From: Eledone cirrhosa
Lineage: Eukaryota
Direction of reading: 5' to 3'
DNA: 64,000 bases
NCBI GenBank assembly: GCA_964016885.1
Contig: OZ024744.1
Coordinates: 34,844,001 to 34,908,000 of the forward strand
Under the pieces are notes generated by a model. It was given only the letters and a program-made list of their open reading frames with translations, was not told the DNA's origin and made no database searches. Below, one piece after another: positions 27,781 through 44,256 of this stretch. Both the position numbers and the translations under genes were made by a program. Numbering within the stretch: the stretch's first letter is position 1; the number at the start of each line of letters is the position of its first letter.

Positions 27781-30700
27781 TAGAAATTGGAATAAATGCT
27801 CTGAAATAGCGATATATATGTGAATATAGACATAGAATATTCGAAGATATTCTGTATGTTTATAATAAACATTTTGAAGACCTAATCGCTATAGAATAGA
27901 ATACGTCACGTATTACAATTAGATTCTCGATAAAAGCAAGGGAAGTAAATCTACGCGTTTCATTCTTATTAGAAATCGTCAGGACTACATATCCAGTGCT
28001 TTTATCGAGAATGACACAGCTAGAGACTTATAGAATACTTAGCTGTGTACAGGAACTGGTTTGAAAGAGCGGTTGCCGGTCCGGCAGAAATTAGAAATTG
28101 GAATAAATGCTCTGAAATAGCGATATATATGTGAATATAGACATAGAATATTCGAAGATATTCTGTATGTTTATAATAAACATTTTGAAGACCTAATCGC
28201 TATAGAATAGAATACGTCACGTATTACAATTAGATTCTCGATAAAAGCAAGGGAAGTAAATCTACGCGTTTCATTCTTATTAGAAATCGTCAGGACTACA
28301 TATCCAGTGCTTTTATCGAGAATGACACAGCTAGAGACTTATAGAATACTTAGCTGTGTACAGGAACTGGTTTGAAAGAGCGGTTGCCGGTCCGGCAGAA
28401 ATTAGAAATTGGAATAAATGCTCTGAAATAGCGATATATATGTGAATATAGACATAGAATATTCGAAGATATTCTGTATGTTTATAATAAACATTTTGAA
28501 GACCTAATCGCTATAGAATAGAATACGTCACGTATTACAATTAGATTCTCGATAAAAGCAAGGGAAGTAAATCTACGCGTTTCATTCTTATTAGAAATCG
28601 TCAGGACTACATATCCAGTGCTTTTATCGAGAATGACACAGCTAGAGACTTATAGAATACTTAGCTGTGTACAGGAACTGGTTTGAAAGAGCGGTTGCCG
28701 GTCCGGCAGAAATTAGAAATTGGAATAAATGCTCTGAAATAGCGATATATATGTGAATATAGACATAGAATATTCGAAGATATTCTGTATGTTTATAATA
28801 AACATTTTGAAGACCTAATCGCTATAGAATAGAATACGTCACGTATTACAATTAGATTCTCGATAAAAGCAAGGGAAGTAAATCTACGCGTTTCATTCTT
28901 ATTAGAAATCGTCAGGACTACATATCCAGTGCTTTTATCGAGAATGACACAGCTAGAGACTTATAGAATACTTAGCTGTGTACAGGAACTGGTTTGAAAG
29001 AGCGGTTGCCGGTCCGGCAGAAATTAGAAATTGGAATAAATGCTCTGAAATAGCGATATATATGTGAATATAGACATAGAATATTCGAAGATATTCTGTA
29101 TGTTTATAATAAACATTTTGAAGACCTAATCGCTATAGAATAGAATACGTCACGTATTACAATTAGATTCTCGATAAAAGCAAGGGAAGTAAATCTACGC
29201 GTTTCATTCTTATTAGAAATCGTCAGGACTACATATCCAGTGCTTTTATCGAGAATGACACAGCTAGAGACTTATAGAATACTTAGCTGTGTACAGGAAC
29301 TGGTTTGAAAGAGCGGTTGCCGGTCCGGCAGAAATTAGAAATTGGAATAAATGCTCTGAAATAGCGATATATATGTGAATATAGACATAGAATATTCGAA
29401 GATATTCTGTATGTTTATAATAAACATTTTGAAGACCTAATCGCTATAGAATAGAATACGTCACGTATTACAATTAGATTCTCGATAAAAGCAAGGGAAG
29501 TAAATCTACGCGTTTCATTCTTATTAGAAATCGTCAGGACTACATATCCAGTGCTTTTATCGAGAATGACACAGCTAGAGACTTATAGAATACTTAAACC
29601 AGTTCCTGTACACAGCTAAGTATTCTATAAGTCTCTAGCTGTGTCATTCTCGATAAAAGCACTGGATATGTAGTCCTGACGATTTCTAATAAGAATGAAA
29701 CGCGTAGATTTACTTCCCTTGCTTTTATCGAGAATCTAATTGTAATACGTGACGTATTCTATTCTATAGCGATTAGGTCTTCAAAATGTTTATTATAAAC
29801 ATACAGAATATCTTCGAATATTCTATGTCTATATTCACATATATATCGCTATTTCAGAGCATTTATTCCAATTTCTAATTTCTGCCGGACCGGCAACCGC
29901 TCTTTCAAACCAGTTCCTGTACACAGCTAAGTATTCTATAAGTCTCTAGCTGTGTCATTCTCGATAAAAGCACTGGATATGTAGTCCTGACGATTTCTAA
30001 TAAGAATGAAACGCGTAGATTTACTTCCCTTGCTTTTATCGAGAATCTAATTGTAATACGTGACGTATTCTATTCTATAGCGATTAGGTCTTCAAAATGT
30101 TTATTATAAACATACAGAATATCTTCGAATATTCTATGTCTATATTCACATATATATCGCTATTTCAGAGCATTTATTCCAATTTCTAATTTCTGCCGGA
30201 CCGGCAACCGCTCTTTCAAACCAGTTCCTGTACACAGCTAAGTATTCTATAAGTCTCTAGCTGTGTCATTCTCGATAAAAGCACTGGATATGTAGTCCTG
30301 ACGATTTCTAATAAGAATGAAACGCGTAGATTTACTTCCCTTGCTTTTATCGAGAATCTAATTGTAATACGTGACGTATTCTATTCTATAGCGATTAGGT
30401 CTTCAAAATGTTTATTATAAACATACAGAATATCTTCGAATATTCTATGTCTATATTCACATATATATCGCTATTTCAGAGCATTTATTCCAATTTCTAA
30501 TTTCTGCCGGACCGGCAACCGCTCTTTCAAACCAGTTCCTGTACACAGCTAAGTATTCTATAAGTCTCTAGCTGTGTCATTCTCGATAAAAGCACTGGAT
30601 ATGTAGTCCTGACGATTTCTAATAAGAATGAAACGCGTAGATTTACTTCCCTTGCTTTTATCGAGAATCTAATTGTAATACGTGACGTATTCTATTCTAT

Positions 30701-41270: not shown

Positions 41271-44256
41271 TGAGTATAGACATAGAATATTCGAAAATAT
41301 TCTGTATGTTTATAATAAACATTTTGAAGACCTAATCGCTATAGAATAGAATACGTCACGCATTACAATTAGATTCTCGATAAAAGCAAGGGAAGCAATC
41401 TACGCGTTTCATTCTTGTTAGAATTCATCAGGACTACATATCCAGTGCTTTTATCGAGAATGACACAGCTAGAGACTTATAGAATACTTAGCTGTGTACT
41501 GGAACTGGTTTGAAAGAGCGGCCGCCGGTCCGGCAGAAATTAGAAATTGGAAAAATGCTCTGAAATAGCGATATATATGTGAGTATAGACATAGAATATT
41601 CGAAAATATTCTGTATGTTTATAATAAACATTTTGAAGACCTAATCGCTATAGAATAGAATACGTCACGCATTACAATTAGATTCTCGATAAAAGCAAGG
41701 GAAGCAATCTACGCGTTTCATTCTTGTTAGAATTCATCAGGACTACATATCCAGTGCTTTTATCGAGAATGACACAGCTAGAGACTTATAGAATACTTAG
41801 CTGTGTACTGGAACTGGTTTGAAAGAGCGGCCGCCGGTCCGGCAGAAATTAGAAATTGGAAAAATGCTCTGAAATAGCGATATATATGTGAGTATAGACA
41901 TAGAATATTCGAAAATATTCTGTATGTTTATAATAAACATTTTGAAGACCTAATCGCTATAGAATAGAATACGTCACGCATTACAATTAGATTCTCGATA
42001 AAAGCAAGGGAAGCAATCTACGCGTTTCATTCTTGTTAGAATTCATCAGGACTACATATCCAGTGCTTTTATCGAGAATGACACAGCTAGAGACTTATAG
42101 AATACTTAGCTGTGTACTGGAACTGGTTTGAAAGAGCGGCCGCCGGTCCGGCAGAAATTAGAAATTGGAAAAATGCTCTGAAATAGCGATATATATGTGA
42201 GTATAGACATAGAATATTCGAAAATATTCTGTATGTTTATAATAAACATTTTGAAGACCTAATCGCTATAGAATAGAATACGTCACGCATTACAATTAGA
42301 TTCTCGATAAAAGCAAGGGAAGCAATCTACGCGTTTCATTCTTGTTAGAATTCATCAGGACTACATATCCAGTGCTTTTATCGAGAATGACACAGCTAGA
42401 GACTTATAGAATACTTAGCTGTGTACTGGAACTGGTTTGAAAGAGCGGCCGCCGGTCCGGCAGAAATTAGAAATTGGAAAAATGCTCTGAAATAGCGATA
42501 TATATGTGAGTATAGACATAGAATATTCGAAAATATTCTGTATGTTTATAATAAACATTTTGAAGACCTAATCGCTATAGAATAGAATACGTCACGCATT
42601 ACAATTAGATTCTCGATAAAAGCAAGGGAAGCAATCTACGCGTTTCATTCTTGTTAGAATTCATCAGGACTACATATCCAGTGCTTTTATCGAGAATGAC
42701 ACAGCTAGAGACTTATAGAATACTTAGCTGTGTACTGGAACTGGTTTGAAAGAGCGGCTGCCGAGCTAAGTATTCTATAAGTCTCTAGCTGTGTCATTCT
42801 CGATAAAAGCACTGGATATGTAGTCCTGATGAATTCTAACAAGAATGAAACGCGTAGATTGCTTCCCTTGCTTTTATCGAGAATCTAATTGTAATGCGTG
42901 ACGTATTCTATTCTATAGCGATTAGGTCTTCAAAATGTTTATTATAAACATACAGAATATTTTCGAATATTCTATGTCTATACTCACATATATATCGCTA
43001 TTTCAGAGCATTTTTCCAATTTCTAATTTCTGCCGGACCGGCGGCCGCTCTTTCAAACCAGTTCCAGTACACAGCTAAGTATTCTATAAGTCTCTAGCTG
43101 TGTCATTCTCGATAAAAGCACTGGATATGTAGTCCTGATGAATTCTAACAAGAATGAAACGCGTAGATTGCTTCCCTTGCTTTTATCGAGAATCTAATTG
43201 TAATGCGTGACGTATTCTATTCTATAGCGATTAGGTCTTCAAAATGTTTATTATAAACATACAGAATATTTTCGAATATTCTATGTCTATACTCACATAT
43301 ATATCGCTATTTCAGAGCATTTTTCCAATTTCTAATTTCTGCCGGACCGGCGGCCGCTCTTTCAAACCAGTTCCAGTACACAGCTAAGTATTCTATAAGT
43401 CTCTAGCTGTGTCATTCTCGATAAAAGCACTGGATATGTAGTCCTGATGAATTCTAACAAGAATGAAACGCGTAGATTGCTTCCCTTGCTTTTATCGAGA
43501 ATCTAATTGTAATGCGTGACGTATTCTATTCTATAGCGATTAGGTCTTCAAAATGTTTATTATAAACATACAGAATATTTTCGAATATTCTATGTCTATA
43601 CTCACATATATATCGCTATTTCAGAGCATTTTTCCAATTTCTAATTTCTGCCGGACCGGCGGCCGCTCTTTCAAACCAGTTCCAGTACACAGCTAAGTAT
43701 TCTATAAGTCTCTAGCTGTGTCATTCTCGATAAAAGCACTGGATATGTAGTCCTGATGAATTCTAACAAGAATGAAACGCGTAGATTGCTTCCCTTGCTT
43801 TTATCGAGAATCTAATTGTAATGCGTGACGTATTCTATTCTATAGCGATTAGGTCTTCAAAATGTTTATTATAAACATACAGAATATTTTCGAATATTCT
43901 ATGTCTATACTCACATATATATCGCTATTTCAGAGCATTTTTCCAATTTCTAATTTCTGCCGGACCGGCGGCCGCTCTTTCAAACCAGTTCCAGTACACA
44001 GCTAAGTATTCTATAAGTCTCTAGCTGTGTCATTCTCGATAAAAGCACTGGATATGTAGTCCTGATGAATTCTAACAAGAATGAAACGCGTAGATTGCTT
44101 CCCTTGCTTTTATCGAGAATCTAATTGTAATGCGTGACGTATTCTATTCTATAGCGATTAGGTCTTCAAAATGTTTATTATAAACATACAGAATATTTTC
44201 GAATATTCTATGTCTATACTCACATATATATCGCTATTTCAGAGCATTTTTCCAAT
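41271..44256. repeat. second palindromic tandem array, 309-bp hammerhead-containing units
   Basis: About 4.8 units forward (41271-42763) and about 4.8 inverted (42764-44256); diverged subfamily of array 1; 10 hammerhead motifs. Confidence 0.95.
42796..42884 (+). ncRNA. type I hammerhead ribozyme, representative of array 2 (repeats every 309 bp)
   Basis: gtagtc-CTGATGA-attct aaca agaat-GAAA-cgc-GTA-gattgc, closed by attctcgataaaagca/tgcttttatcgagaat. Confidence 0.9.

Follow-up and report, generated by a model that had tools for sequence, protein, structure and literature searches.

The window analyzed here, a stretch of 64,000 nucleotides from contig OZ024744.1 of Eledone cirrhosa, contains two repeat arrays, A and B, which are two separate, young insertions. 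We consider it quite probable that both consist of a non-coding, hammerhead-motif repeat of 309-311 nt, a metazoan non-LTR retrozyme, and that each was made by an enzyme of a Penelope-like element (PLE) that cut a (TA)n tract and reverse-transcribed the retrozyme RNA from both DNA ends. The arrays would be a further retrozyme of an already known type, likely mobilized by PLE enzymes.

Layout of the two arrays

Array A is a head-to-head pair of tandem arms embedded in (TA)n. We number its 311-nt unit from window position 29707, the first base past the predicted ribozyme cut GUA|GAUU. The target, a (TA)n microsatellite at 27414..27780 (TRF row 27414-27782 and sequence), forms the left flank and is followed by the long-end arm (27781..29596), 5.8 units that are 100% identical and have their ribozyme sense on the minus strand. 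Read in this sense, the arm runs from a central start at unit 222/223 (TAAGTATTC) to an outer end at unit 171 (CCAATTTCTA). Alignment of the outer ends reveals that its last stretch, unit 141-171 (27781..27811, minus strand), is missing from the short end; we refer to this stretch as the tail. The arms meet at 29596..29597 with a 1-nt overlap at 29596, and the short-end arm, beginning at 29596/7, continues for 6.8 units in sense orientation on the plus strand (29597..31712). Its central start lies at unit 201 (AACCAGTTCC), about 21 nt earlier than that of the left arm, and its outer end at unit 140 (CACATATATAT), where it merges into the (TA)n of the right flank (31705..31872; TRF and sequence). 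The unit of array A is one substitution away from a 311-nt master unit present at other loci.

Array B, likewise a head-to-head pair of tandem arms embedded in (TA)n, is the structural mirror image of array A. A (TA)n-rich left flank (41168..41270, from sequence) leads into the short-end arm, 4.8 antisense units of a 309-nt variant on the minus strand (41271..42758), which runs from a central start at unit 190 to an outer end at unit 131 (ACTCA, then TATATA). The 5 nt at the junction, TGCCG (42759..42763), prolong the left arm and match the unit except at one position. The long-end arm follows with 4.8 sense units on the plus strand (42764..44256), from a central start at unit 219 (AGCTAAGTATTC) to an outer end at unit 166 (CCAAT, then ATATAT); the same alignment places its tail, unit 132-166, at 44222..44256 on the plus strand. 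Beyond it lies the (TA)n of the right flank (44255..44503; TRF and sequence). The unit of array B is five changes away from a 310-nt master carried by 34 mapped loci on other contigs. The sequence-only reading of this DNA had described mirror-image arrays with near-identical arm ends and inversion points at 29596/29597 and 42763/42764, and we find the same layout, with ends at 171/140 in A and 131/166 in B, all inside (TA)n, and the same inversion points.

Repeat unit and candidate ribozyme

Units are 99-100% identical within each array by TRF, and a k-mer scan passed through both arrays without breaks. An ORF scan found no stop-to-stop frame of at least 120 aa inside array A or B, and the sole frames touching the arrays stem from the (TA)n run at 27271-27888.

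Motif reading reveals a hammerhead core, CUGA(C/U)GA ... GAAA, accompanied by A15.1-U16.1, a distal helix I of 16 bp and the predicted cut site GUA|G. All these elements occur in A and in B and, among the three master variants, in that of 310 nt and in one of 311 nt. In an example module read on the plus strand at 29644..29734, with the predicted cut after GUA at 29706|29707, the distal helix I pairs unit 249-264 with 13-28, and the motif further comprises CUGACGA, helix II (UUUCU/AGAAU), GAAAC, and a helix III of one pair with a CGCG cap. Folding of the module including its 16-bp closing helix gives z=-5.4; the MFE fold leaves helix II undrawn, the letters of which are UUUCU/AGAAU in A versus AUUCU/AGAAU in B. 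The helix I arms at 13-28 and 249-264 also form the largest inverted repeat of the unit, and another hairpin has its stems ACACAGCTA / TAGCTGTGT at unit 215-223 and 241-249. Rfam hammerhead models gave no match in the whole window at the gathering score, and at E<=10 on 29590-30600 the lone Rfam match was a chance hit of a miRNA model on the helix I hairpin. The motif reading and the likeness to published amphibian-type hammerheads, among them axolotl motifs (PMC7229834), make the unit a candidate for a hammerhead ribozyme.

Array ends across the genome

The census covers 70 head-to-head junctions in the genome, 2 from the window arrays and 68 on many other contigs (69 in all once a local duplicate in L111 is dropped; L111 is counted twice in the tallies of ends). 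All 70 have an antisense arm followed by a sense arm, the reverse order occurring in none, and the two-armed arrays compare with only three single-armed ones. Both outer ends are visible in 67 arrays, 63 of which end short (unit 122-140) on one side and long (unit 157-173) on the other, while short-short and long-long arrays number zero. The short end falls in the unit's CATATATA tract (131/140 in the window arrays) and the long end at CCAAT(TTCTA) (166/171), about 30 nt further. The modal ends are unit 131 (26 ends), 140 (23), 166 (42) and 168 (10), which offsets long from short modes by 26-35 nt. Outer flanks are (TA)n in 135/143 cases, scored as such if at least 80% of the first 20 nt is (TA)n. 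Arm length shows no difference between long-end and short-end arms (Wilcoxon p=0.41); in 32 of the 63 paired arrays the arm with the long end exceeds its partner. Arms in the family reach more than 16 units of the 310-nt repeat.

We therefore find that the outer end points are far from random and follow a genome-wide rule of this repeat family. The reproducible integration mechanism proposed in the sequence-only reading is borne out by the fixed outer ends, their pairing and the (TA)n flanks. Its idea of priming by TA microhomology may hold in part: such priming is possible at the short end but does not account for all short ends, as 26 of them stop at unit 131 and leave C132 uncopied.

The mirror image of A and B is simply an asymmetric footprint seen in either direction, with 35 arrays running short-then-long and 28 long-then-short. 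Thirteen positions separate the two units, which fall into different subfamilies, each array being uniform inside, and all four breakpoints are offset by 3-11 nt between A and B. The only sequences that their flanks have in common are dispersed SINE-like copies, of which one pair lies in direct order, and the flanks show no mirror homology. An inverted segmental duplication of one array is rejected on the basis of these flanks and the 13 unit differences, and with it the suggestion that one ancestral palindrome had been copied in opposite orientation.

We note that target-site duplications are unreadable inside (TA)n. Two mapped loci (L050 and L051) adjoin runs of N, and a diverged relative at L073:6378-6840 displays the two-armed, long-plus-short-end layout at monomer scale.

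Inner ends and junctions

Contrary to the outer ends, which cluster at 131, 140, 166 and 168 across the mapped arrays, the inversion points are uniform. Tested over the whole unit, the 140 inner ends fit an even distribution (chi-square p=0.88), and 16/140 fall in the hairpin region (unit 214-248) versus 15.8 expected. Unit 219-225 holds 6/140 inner ends versus 3.2 expected (p=0.10), and the window arrays contribute two of those six. The earlier placement of both inversions at the hairpin acacagcta...tagctgtgt is correct for the long-end arms, which start there (222/223 in A, 219 in B), but not for the short-end arms, which start upstream (201 and 190). Given the uniform inner ends, hairpin-guided inversion, and the strand switching that had been ascribed to it, is rejected; the inversion point that A and B share at the hairpin is a coincidence.

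Structural analysis of the junctions reveals an overlap of at least 2 nt in 30 of 53 filler-free junctions, compared with 18% by chance (p=4e-10). Longer junction fillers are mostly short repeats of adjoining unit sequence. At the L118 junction, an overlap of 16 nt coincides with the helix I arms.

Array-wide variants

Sixteen substitutions are fixed across every unit of an array, 14 of them being present on both arms. On the sense strand, A>G accounts for 11/16 of these array-fixed variants as against 2/43 single-unit changes (Fisher p=1e-6), a bias compatible with an edited RNA template. One variant is common to L037 and L057, which indicates that an array can also take over its variant from the array that served as its source.

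A model for integration

In the mechanism that we favor, dual target-primed reverse transcription by a PLE enzyme, the endonuclease would open both strands of the (TA)n target, and each 3'-OH would prime cDNA synthesis on the sense RNA. One start would lie at the UAUAUA tract (unit about 131-140) and a second one near unit 166, roughly 30 nt downstream, with the intervening sequence corresponding to the PLE tail. Each polymerase would then circle several times around a monomer RNA that is probably circular, or follow a multimer, producing a tandem arm. The antisense cDNA ends may finally meet at arbitrary phases and be joined via 0-4 nt of microhomology or short slipped duplications, after which each end would template the other strand.

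The fixed antisense-then-sense order, in which the ribozyme-sense 3' ends point outward, is expected if antisense cDNA attaches to each target 3'-OH, whereas a foldback at the DNA level would yield both orders. The independence of arm length from end type speaks against a snap-back origin of either arm from its partner.

A more specific arrangement is possible, and we propose it tentatively, at somewhat less than even confidence: two reverse-transcriptase active sites, perhaps those of a dimer, may occupy a single small circular RNA at a distance of about 30 nt. With either end of the cut (TA)n priming one of them, they would chase each other around the circle, so that an array would be a single-molecule record of Penelope-type integration. 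Such an arrangement would account for the presence of one short and one long end and for private variants common to both arms, and many of the array variants, being A>G, would look like ADAR edits of the template. If it is true, retrozyme arrays provide an in vivo readout of PLE mechanics that goes beyond the in vitro system, as well as proof that PLEs move retrozymes through an RNA circle.

Alternative explanations

Four other origins deserve consideration. An origin at the DNA level would begin with a break at cruciform-prone (TA)n, repaired either through foldback or with re-integrated extrachromosomal DNA from rolling-circle amplification (Helitron-like/eccDNA). This scenario draws on the fragile and palindromic nature of (TA)n tracts, on the capacity of rolling-circle DNA synthesis to make tandem arrays of identical units, and on a retrozyme distribution noted to resemble also that of Helitron-like elements (bioRxiv 10.64898/2026.07.22.740005). 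We regard it as very unlikely: a DNA foldback should be indifferent to the ribozyme strand, but polarity is the same in 70/70; the end points, fixed and unlike each other, correspond to RNA start sites described for PLEs (PMC11167929); and the predominance of sense-strand A>G among array-wide variants points to an RNA stage. Highly improbable, too, is hairpin self-priming, in which one cDNA reaches the hairpin at unit 215-249, folds back and copies itself into the second arm. The long-end arms of A and B do start in the 5' stem of this hairpin, the L118 overlap lies at the unit's largest inverted repeat, and self-priming has been inferred from palindromes at inverted Penelope junctions (PMC3846280). 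However, inner ends show no preference for the hairpin. Moreover, a snap-back copy must stop where its template arm began, whereas the two ends differ in 63/67 arrays and are alike in none, and a copy cannot outgrow its template, yet the long-end arm is the longer one in about half of the arrays (32/63).

The proximity of A and B, just 12 kb apart, and their similar inner breakpoints (222/223 versus 219, 201 versus 190) could reflect an ancestral palindromic array that was duplicated in inverted orientation, with later divergence of the copies; in fact, B minus 20 nt at its center equals the junction of A. We consider this extremely unlikely, since in addition to the unit differences and the uniformity of each array, the corresponding masters are different and found at other loci, the outer ends (171/140 in A versus 166/131 in B) and arm lengths are unlike, and the flanks lack mirror homology. 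It is just as hard to credit that the palindromic junctions are products of gap filling or of chimeric long reads with a foldback. Tandem repeats of palindromic structure are difficult for an assembler, as PMC8557442 notes, and L050 and L051 border on N runs, but an assembly artefact would yield neither the fixed polarity and short-plus-long pairing nor two-sided (TA)n and junction microhomology. The layout also recurs in the diverged family at L073 and agrees with that of PLE insertions reported for other genomes.

Relation to retrozymes and Penelope-like elements

Similarly to metazoan non-LTR retrozymes, the arrays consist of tandem, non-coding units of low GC (known range 170-400 nt), each with a candidate type I hammerhead motif. 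While published retrozymes, in the descriptions cited here, form tandem arrays, nearly every array in our set is head-to-head with two fixed ends. RNA circles and cleavage have been shown for published retrozymes; for the Eledone cirrhosa unit, cleavage is predicted from the motif. Retrozymes have been proposed to be PLE-mobilized via circular RNA (Cervera & de la Pena 2020, PMC7229834; Li, Clavereau & Pollet 2026, bioRxiv 10.64898/2026.07.22.740005). The cited portion of PMC7229834 makes no mention of inverted arms or microsatellite targets for retrozymes, that of bioRxiv 10.64898/2026.07.22.740005 leaves the tail, TPRT and extension of both strands unmentioned, and neither portion describes an insertion footprint.

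PLE insertions comprise tandem and inverted 5'-truncated copies in (TA)n targets, with a 30-40-bp tail that is often one-sided (Craig et al. 2021, PMC8557442), and Penelope copies most often lie head-to-head, one of the two inverted pLTRs bearing the tail (Arkhipova et al. 2013, PMC3846280). A purified PLE protein cuts both strands of the DNA and extends them, and reverse transcription starts at two internal RNA sites, the tail being the sequence between them; in vitro initiation sites also include ones non-homologous to the cut DNA (Frangieh et al. 2024, PMC11167929). The arrays share with PLE insertions the head-to-head, variably 5'-truncated copies, the one-ended tail (26-35 nt here, 30-40 bp there), the preference for (TA)n and a hammerhead motif, which PLEs carry in their terminal repeat. 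Their footprint also fits two start sites bracketing the tail and extension of both DNA strands, as measured for the PLE. Unlike PLE insertions, the arrays are without an ORF, and both arms are multi-unit runs rather than an ORF-bearing copy plus a stub. In L1 twin priming, which yields 5'-inverted LINE-1 insertions, the RNA is primed by the second target strand as well, giving two opposite cDNA segments joined by internal microhomology, but this is an occasional side path without a fixed second start site. Here, two-armed arrays are the rule (70 versus 3 single-armed), with two defined start sites.

The movement of retrozymes in animals is still called open in the cited part of bioRxiv 10.64898/2026.07.22.740005, and the building of tandem and inverted PLE structures is named as a next task in that of PMC8557442. 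The PLE footprint on retrozyme arrays (two start sites, tail, both strands primed) links both questions, and the insertions of this family, which number dozens to hundreds, are very young, have identical units and carry ends readable to the base. The strict pairing of one short with one long end lacks an explanation in the published data as cited here. This pairing, the evidence against snap-back priming and the A>G-rich template variants may, judged against the same parts of the literature, exceed published knowledge.

A GIY-YIG search of the genome returned 10,597 candidates, and 150/150 of those scored lie above Pfam's cut-off. Among 18 GIY-YIG loci examined, out of these more than 10,000 candidates, none had a PLE 3' region matching the unit, and there is no sequence tie between the arrays and any particular PLE in this set. 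One unit-like match beside a GIY-YIG locus (L064/L073) was rejected as a PLE 3' module and is a separate neighboring insertion. In the PLE copies L077 and L078, the ORF is followed by a hammerhead motif on its downstream side, and the fully read copy in L077 has a (TA)n-rich end. In the truncated elements of L076 and L079, helix II and the core (CTGATGATTTCT..GAATGAAAC) are similar to those of the unit.

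Two head-to-head arrays in the window

The window, which lies in a 3.0-Gb animal genome, contains two arrays (A and B) of a 309-311-nt retrozyme unit, each placed within a (TA)n microsatellite by TRF and by the sequence. The unit is numbered from the first base past the predicted ribozyme cut (unit 1 = window 29707). In array A, the left arm (27781-29596) is antisense, comprises 5.8 units and runs from unit 222/223 at the centre to unit 171 at its outer end, and the right arm (29596/7-31712) is sense, with 6.8 units running from unit 201 to unit 140. In array B, the antisense left arm (41271-42758, 4.8 units) runs from unit 190 at the centre to unit 131, and the sense right arm (42764-44256, 4.8 units) from unit 219 to unit 166, with 5 nt separating the two. 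Read in the ribozyme sense, all four arms point outward from the centre. The mirror-image layout noticed in the sequence-only reading agrees with these coordinates: one arm of each array starts at (AGC)TAAGTATTC and ends at CCAAT(TTCTA), and the second starts 20-40 nt earlier and ends in the CATATATA tract. It puts the inversion points at an internal hairpin (stems at unit 215-223 and 241-249), with one correction needed: a single arm per array begins inside that hairpin.

Direct reading, rather than a model score, reveals a candidate hammerhead motif in every unit: CUGA(C/U)GA, a helix II of 4-5 bp, GAAAC, a lone A-U pair with a palindromic CGCG loop, and the site GUA|G. A 16-bp helix joins both ends of the monomer, and the layout is that of the type I hammerhead of amphibian and invertebrate retrozymes, as described in excerpts of PMC7229834. 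Rfam hammerhead models gave no match to the unit, at the gathering score or at E<=10, and arrays A and B contain no open frame of at least 120 aa.

Logan contigs covering 29300-29900 (public runs X1-X4) and 29552-29642 (X1-X3, X6) are 31-60-nt unitigs ending at 29596/29597 in high-copy repeat. Of the 24 public runs listed, none is recorded as RNA. Among the contig records listed, none spans the array A junction with at least 31 nt on each side, the contigs being highly fragmented here. An apparent joint of opposite strands in the contigs over 29300-29900 is merely plain unit mapping to both arms.

Polarity and outer ends across the family

Searching the genome with dimers of the A unit gave 258 matches, in 33 scored regions of 116 candidates; dimers of the B unit gave 295, in 39 scored regions of 174. 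We retrieved 70 loci of 10 kb and mapped arms, phases and ends by k-mer chaining plus exact extension, with the locus's own unit as reference in each case. Counting the window's own two, this yielded 70 head-to-head junctions (69 without a local duplicate in locus L111). In all 70, an antisense arm is followed by a sense arm, and the reverse order was not found among them. Three arrays are single-armed (L081, L098, L100), six loci show extra phase jumps within an arm, and runs of N adjoin two mapped loci (L050, L051).

The outer ends fall into two narrow classes, a short one at unit 122-140 (modes 131, n=26, and 140, n=23) and a long one at unit 157-173 (modes 166, n=42, and 168, n=10). Both ends can be seen in 67 arrays, of which 63 have one short and one long end, 35 in short-long and 28 in long-short order; in the four arrays off this rule an atypical end lies at unit 4, 95, 106 or 199/229. 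Arm length does not differ with end type, and (TA)n is found in 135 of 143 outer flanks. Reproducible priming points, proposed in the sequence-only reading, are thus borne out, and they are the part of its interpretation that holds.

Inner junctions and the internal hairpin

The inner ends, at which the arms start, are by comparison uniform over the unit (n=140; chi-square p=0.88). The hairpin region (unit 214-248) contains 16 of them versus 15.8 expected, and we therefore reject the proposal that the hairpin guides the inversion. At unit 219-225 there are 6 inner ends versus 3.2 expected (p=0.10), two of the six being those of arrays A and B. No filler is present at 53 of 69 junctions, and 30 of these overlap by at least 2 nt versus 18% by chance (p=4e-10). 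Fillers at 16 junctions measure 1-39 nt; the longer ones are mostly repeats of the unit sequence next to the joint, a pattern that slippage of the polymerase or template switching would produce. We note that one junction (L118:4925-4940) has a 16-nt overlap at the helix I inverted repeat (unit 13-28/249-264), the only case among the 69 in which the joint is clearly guided by an internal inverted repeat.

Arrays A and B are independent insertions

The 72 mapped loci contain 18 distinct units with three dominant masters, one of 310 nt (34 loci) and two of 311 nt (14 and 8 loci). Array A is a 311-nt master with one change (T106C), and array B the 310-nt master with A>G at four positions and one nucleotide deleted. 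The two units differ at 13 positions, and the private changes of each array are all found in every unit of both arms. Similarity between the A and B flanks is limited to dispersed SINE-like copies without mirror order, and arises because copies of a tRNA-like SINE occur there. This SINE (start ggaggcacatggcttagtggttagagc...) is present at 31871-32204, 32420-32679, 23059-23407, 39752-40401 and 45395-45726, directly adjoining (TA)n, on both strands.

With different unit variants and flanks lacking mirror homology, we conclude that two subfamilies inserted independently in two (TA)n tracts to give A and B, and an ancestral palindrome copied in opposite orientation, the other origin considered in the sequence-only reading, is rejected. 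The mirror image is two orientations of one asymmetric footprint. It is still slightly odd that the arrays lie only 12 kb apart and have similar inner break points; neighbouring retrozyme arrays occur at other loci too (L101).

A Penelope-type footprint

Only a strand-specific process can explain the fixed polarity. If the 3'-OH ends on both sides of a break primed antisense cDNA on sense RNA, the left arm would be antisense and the right arm sense, and the polarity predicted by such two-sided priming is the arm order observed. The short and long end classes lie 26-35 nt apart, are represented once each per insertion and correspond to the "tail" of Penelope-like elements (PLEs). According to excerpts of PMC8557442, PLE insertions show a 30-40-bp extension that is frequently one-ended, inverted 5'-truncated copies and (TA)n targets. 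In PMC3846280, head-to-head is the commonest arrangement and the tail is carried by one inverted pLTR, and PMC11167929 reports that, with purified PLE protein, both strands are cleaved and extended, with two internal RNA start sites, the tail being the sequence between them. The enzyme that made the arrays was likely a PLE; its template may have been a circle, and a single molecule may have served both arms.

Snap-back self-priming, which is discussed in PMC3846280 and echoed in the sequence-only reading, could alternatively make the second arm. It predicts like ends, yet none of the 67 arrays has two like ends; it also predicts a copy arm no longer than the template arm, and this prediction fails. 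In the literature searched, we found no paper tying retrozymes to a head-to-head, tailed or target-primed reverse transcription footprint.

PLEs and related elements in the genome

The PLE endonuclease (GIY-YIG) has 10,597 candidates in this genome, and all 150 scored lie above the cut-off. The 3' region of PLE copies carries a hammerhead motif, and one such copy, at L077, was read through to its end, a (TA)n-rich stretch. No autonomous partner PLE turned up when the unit was compared by BLAST with 18 GIY-YIG loci, the only matches being at L073, to a neighbouring diverged-retrozyme insertion, and at L074:97-205. The latter, a 3' module 75% alike, lies 4 kb from a PLE ORF and on the opposite strand.

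The diverged retrozyme family (L073:6378-6840, L074:60-205) is 75-80% alike over unit 60-166 and has its own hammerhead motif. Its long end is CACCAAT(C/T)CTAAT and its short end lies within (TA)n/(CA)n; the L073 copy is two-armed and head-to-head, with a long plus a short end, at monomer scale. At L079:2350-5365, two 551-aa PLE open frames overlap head-to-head (minus 2350-4002, plus 3713-5365), an inverted layout like that of the retrozyme arrays at the scale of an autonomous element.

Between arrays A and B, three adjoining retrotransposon open frames occupy 37040-39437 (-). One has an RVT_1 domain; its relatives carry AP-endonuclease, frequently together with a PHD finger. We discarded the reverse transcriptase ORF (38679-39437, -) as a partner, as its relatives with an AP-endonuclease domain (PF03372) identify a LINE, not a PLE.

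A>G-rich variants fixed within arrays

Compared with the nearest master, 16 substitutions are fixed throughout the units of the array that carries them, 14 of them on both arms. Their carriers are array B (41271-44256), L037, L046, L054, L057, L058, L059 and L060. On the sense strand, 11 are A>G, 4 are T>C and 1 is A>T. The cases are few: B supplies 4 of the 11 A>G changes, one is common to L037 and L057, and the direction of change was deduced from how frequent each variant is. Among single-unit changes, A>G accounts for only 2 of 43, versus 11 of 16 fixed (Fisher p=1e-6). The base immediately 5' of an A>G site is U in 6 cases, C in 3, A in 2 and G in none. The A>G-rich fixed variants fit a structured RNA template that underwent A-to-I (ADAR) editing prior to being reverse-transcribed.

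Other observations

Runs X4-X14, labelled as ten other organisms, contain 21-41% of sampled array-region words, and the retrozyme family or close relatives are probably present in related species. Elsewhere in the window, a 48-bp unit is repeated in tandem 99 times (7909-12669; 95% identity), open frames running through the repeat, and an open frame at 5169-5711 (+) with Ion_trans/polycystin-channel Pfam matches probably represents a cation channel exon.
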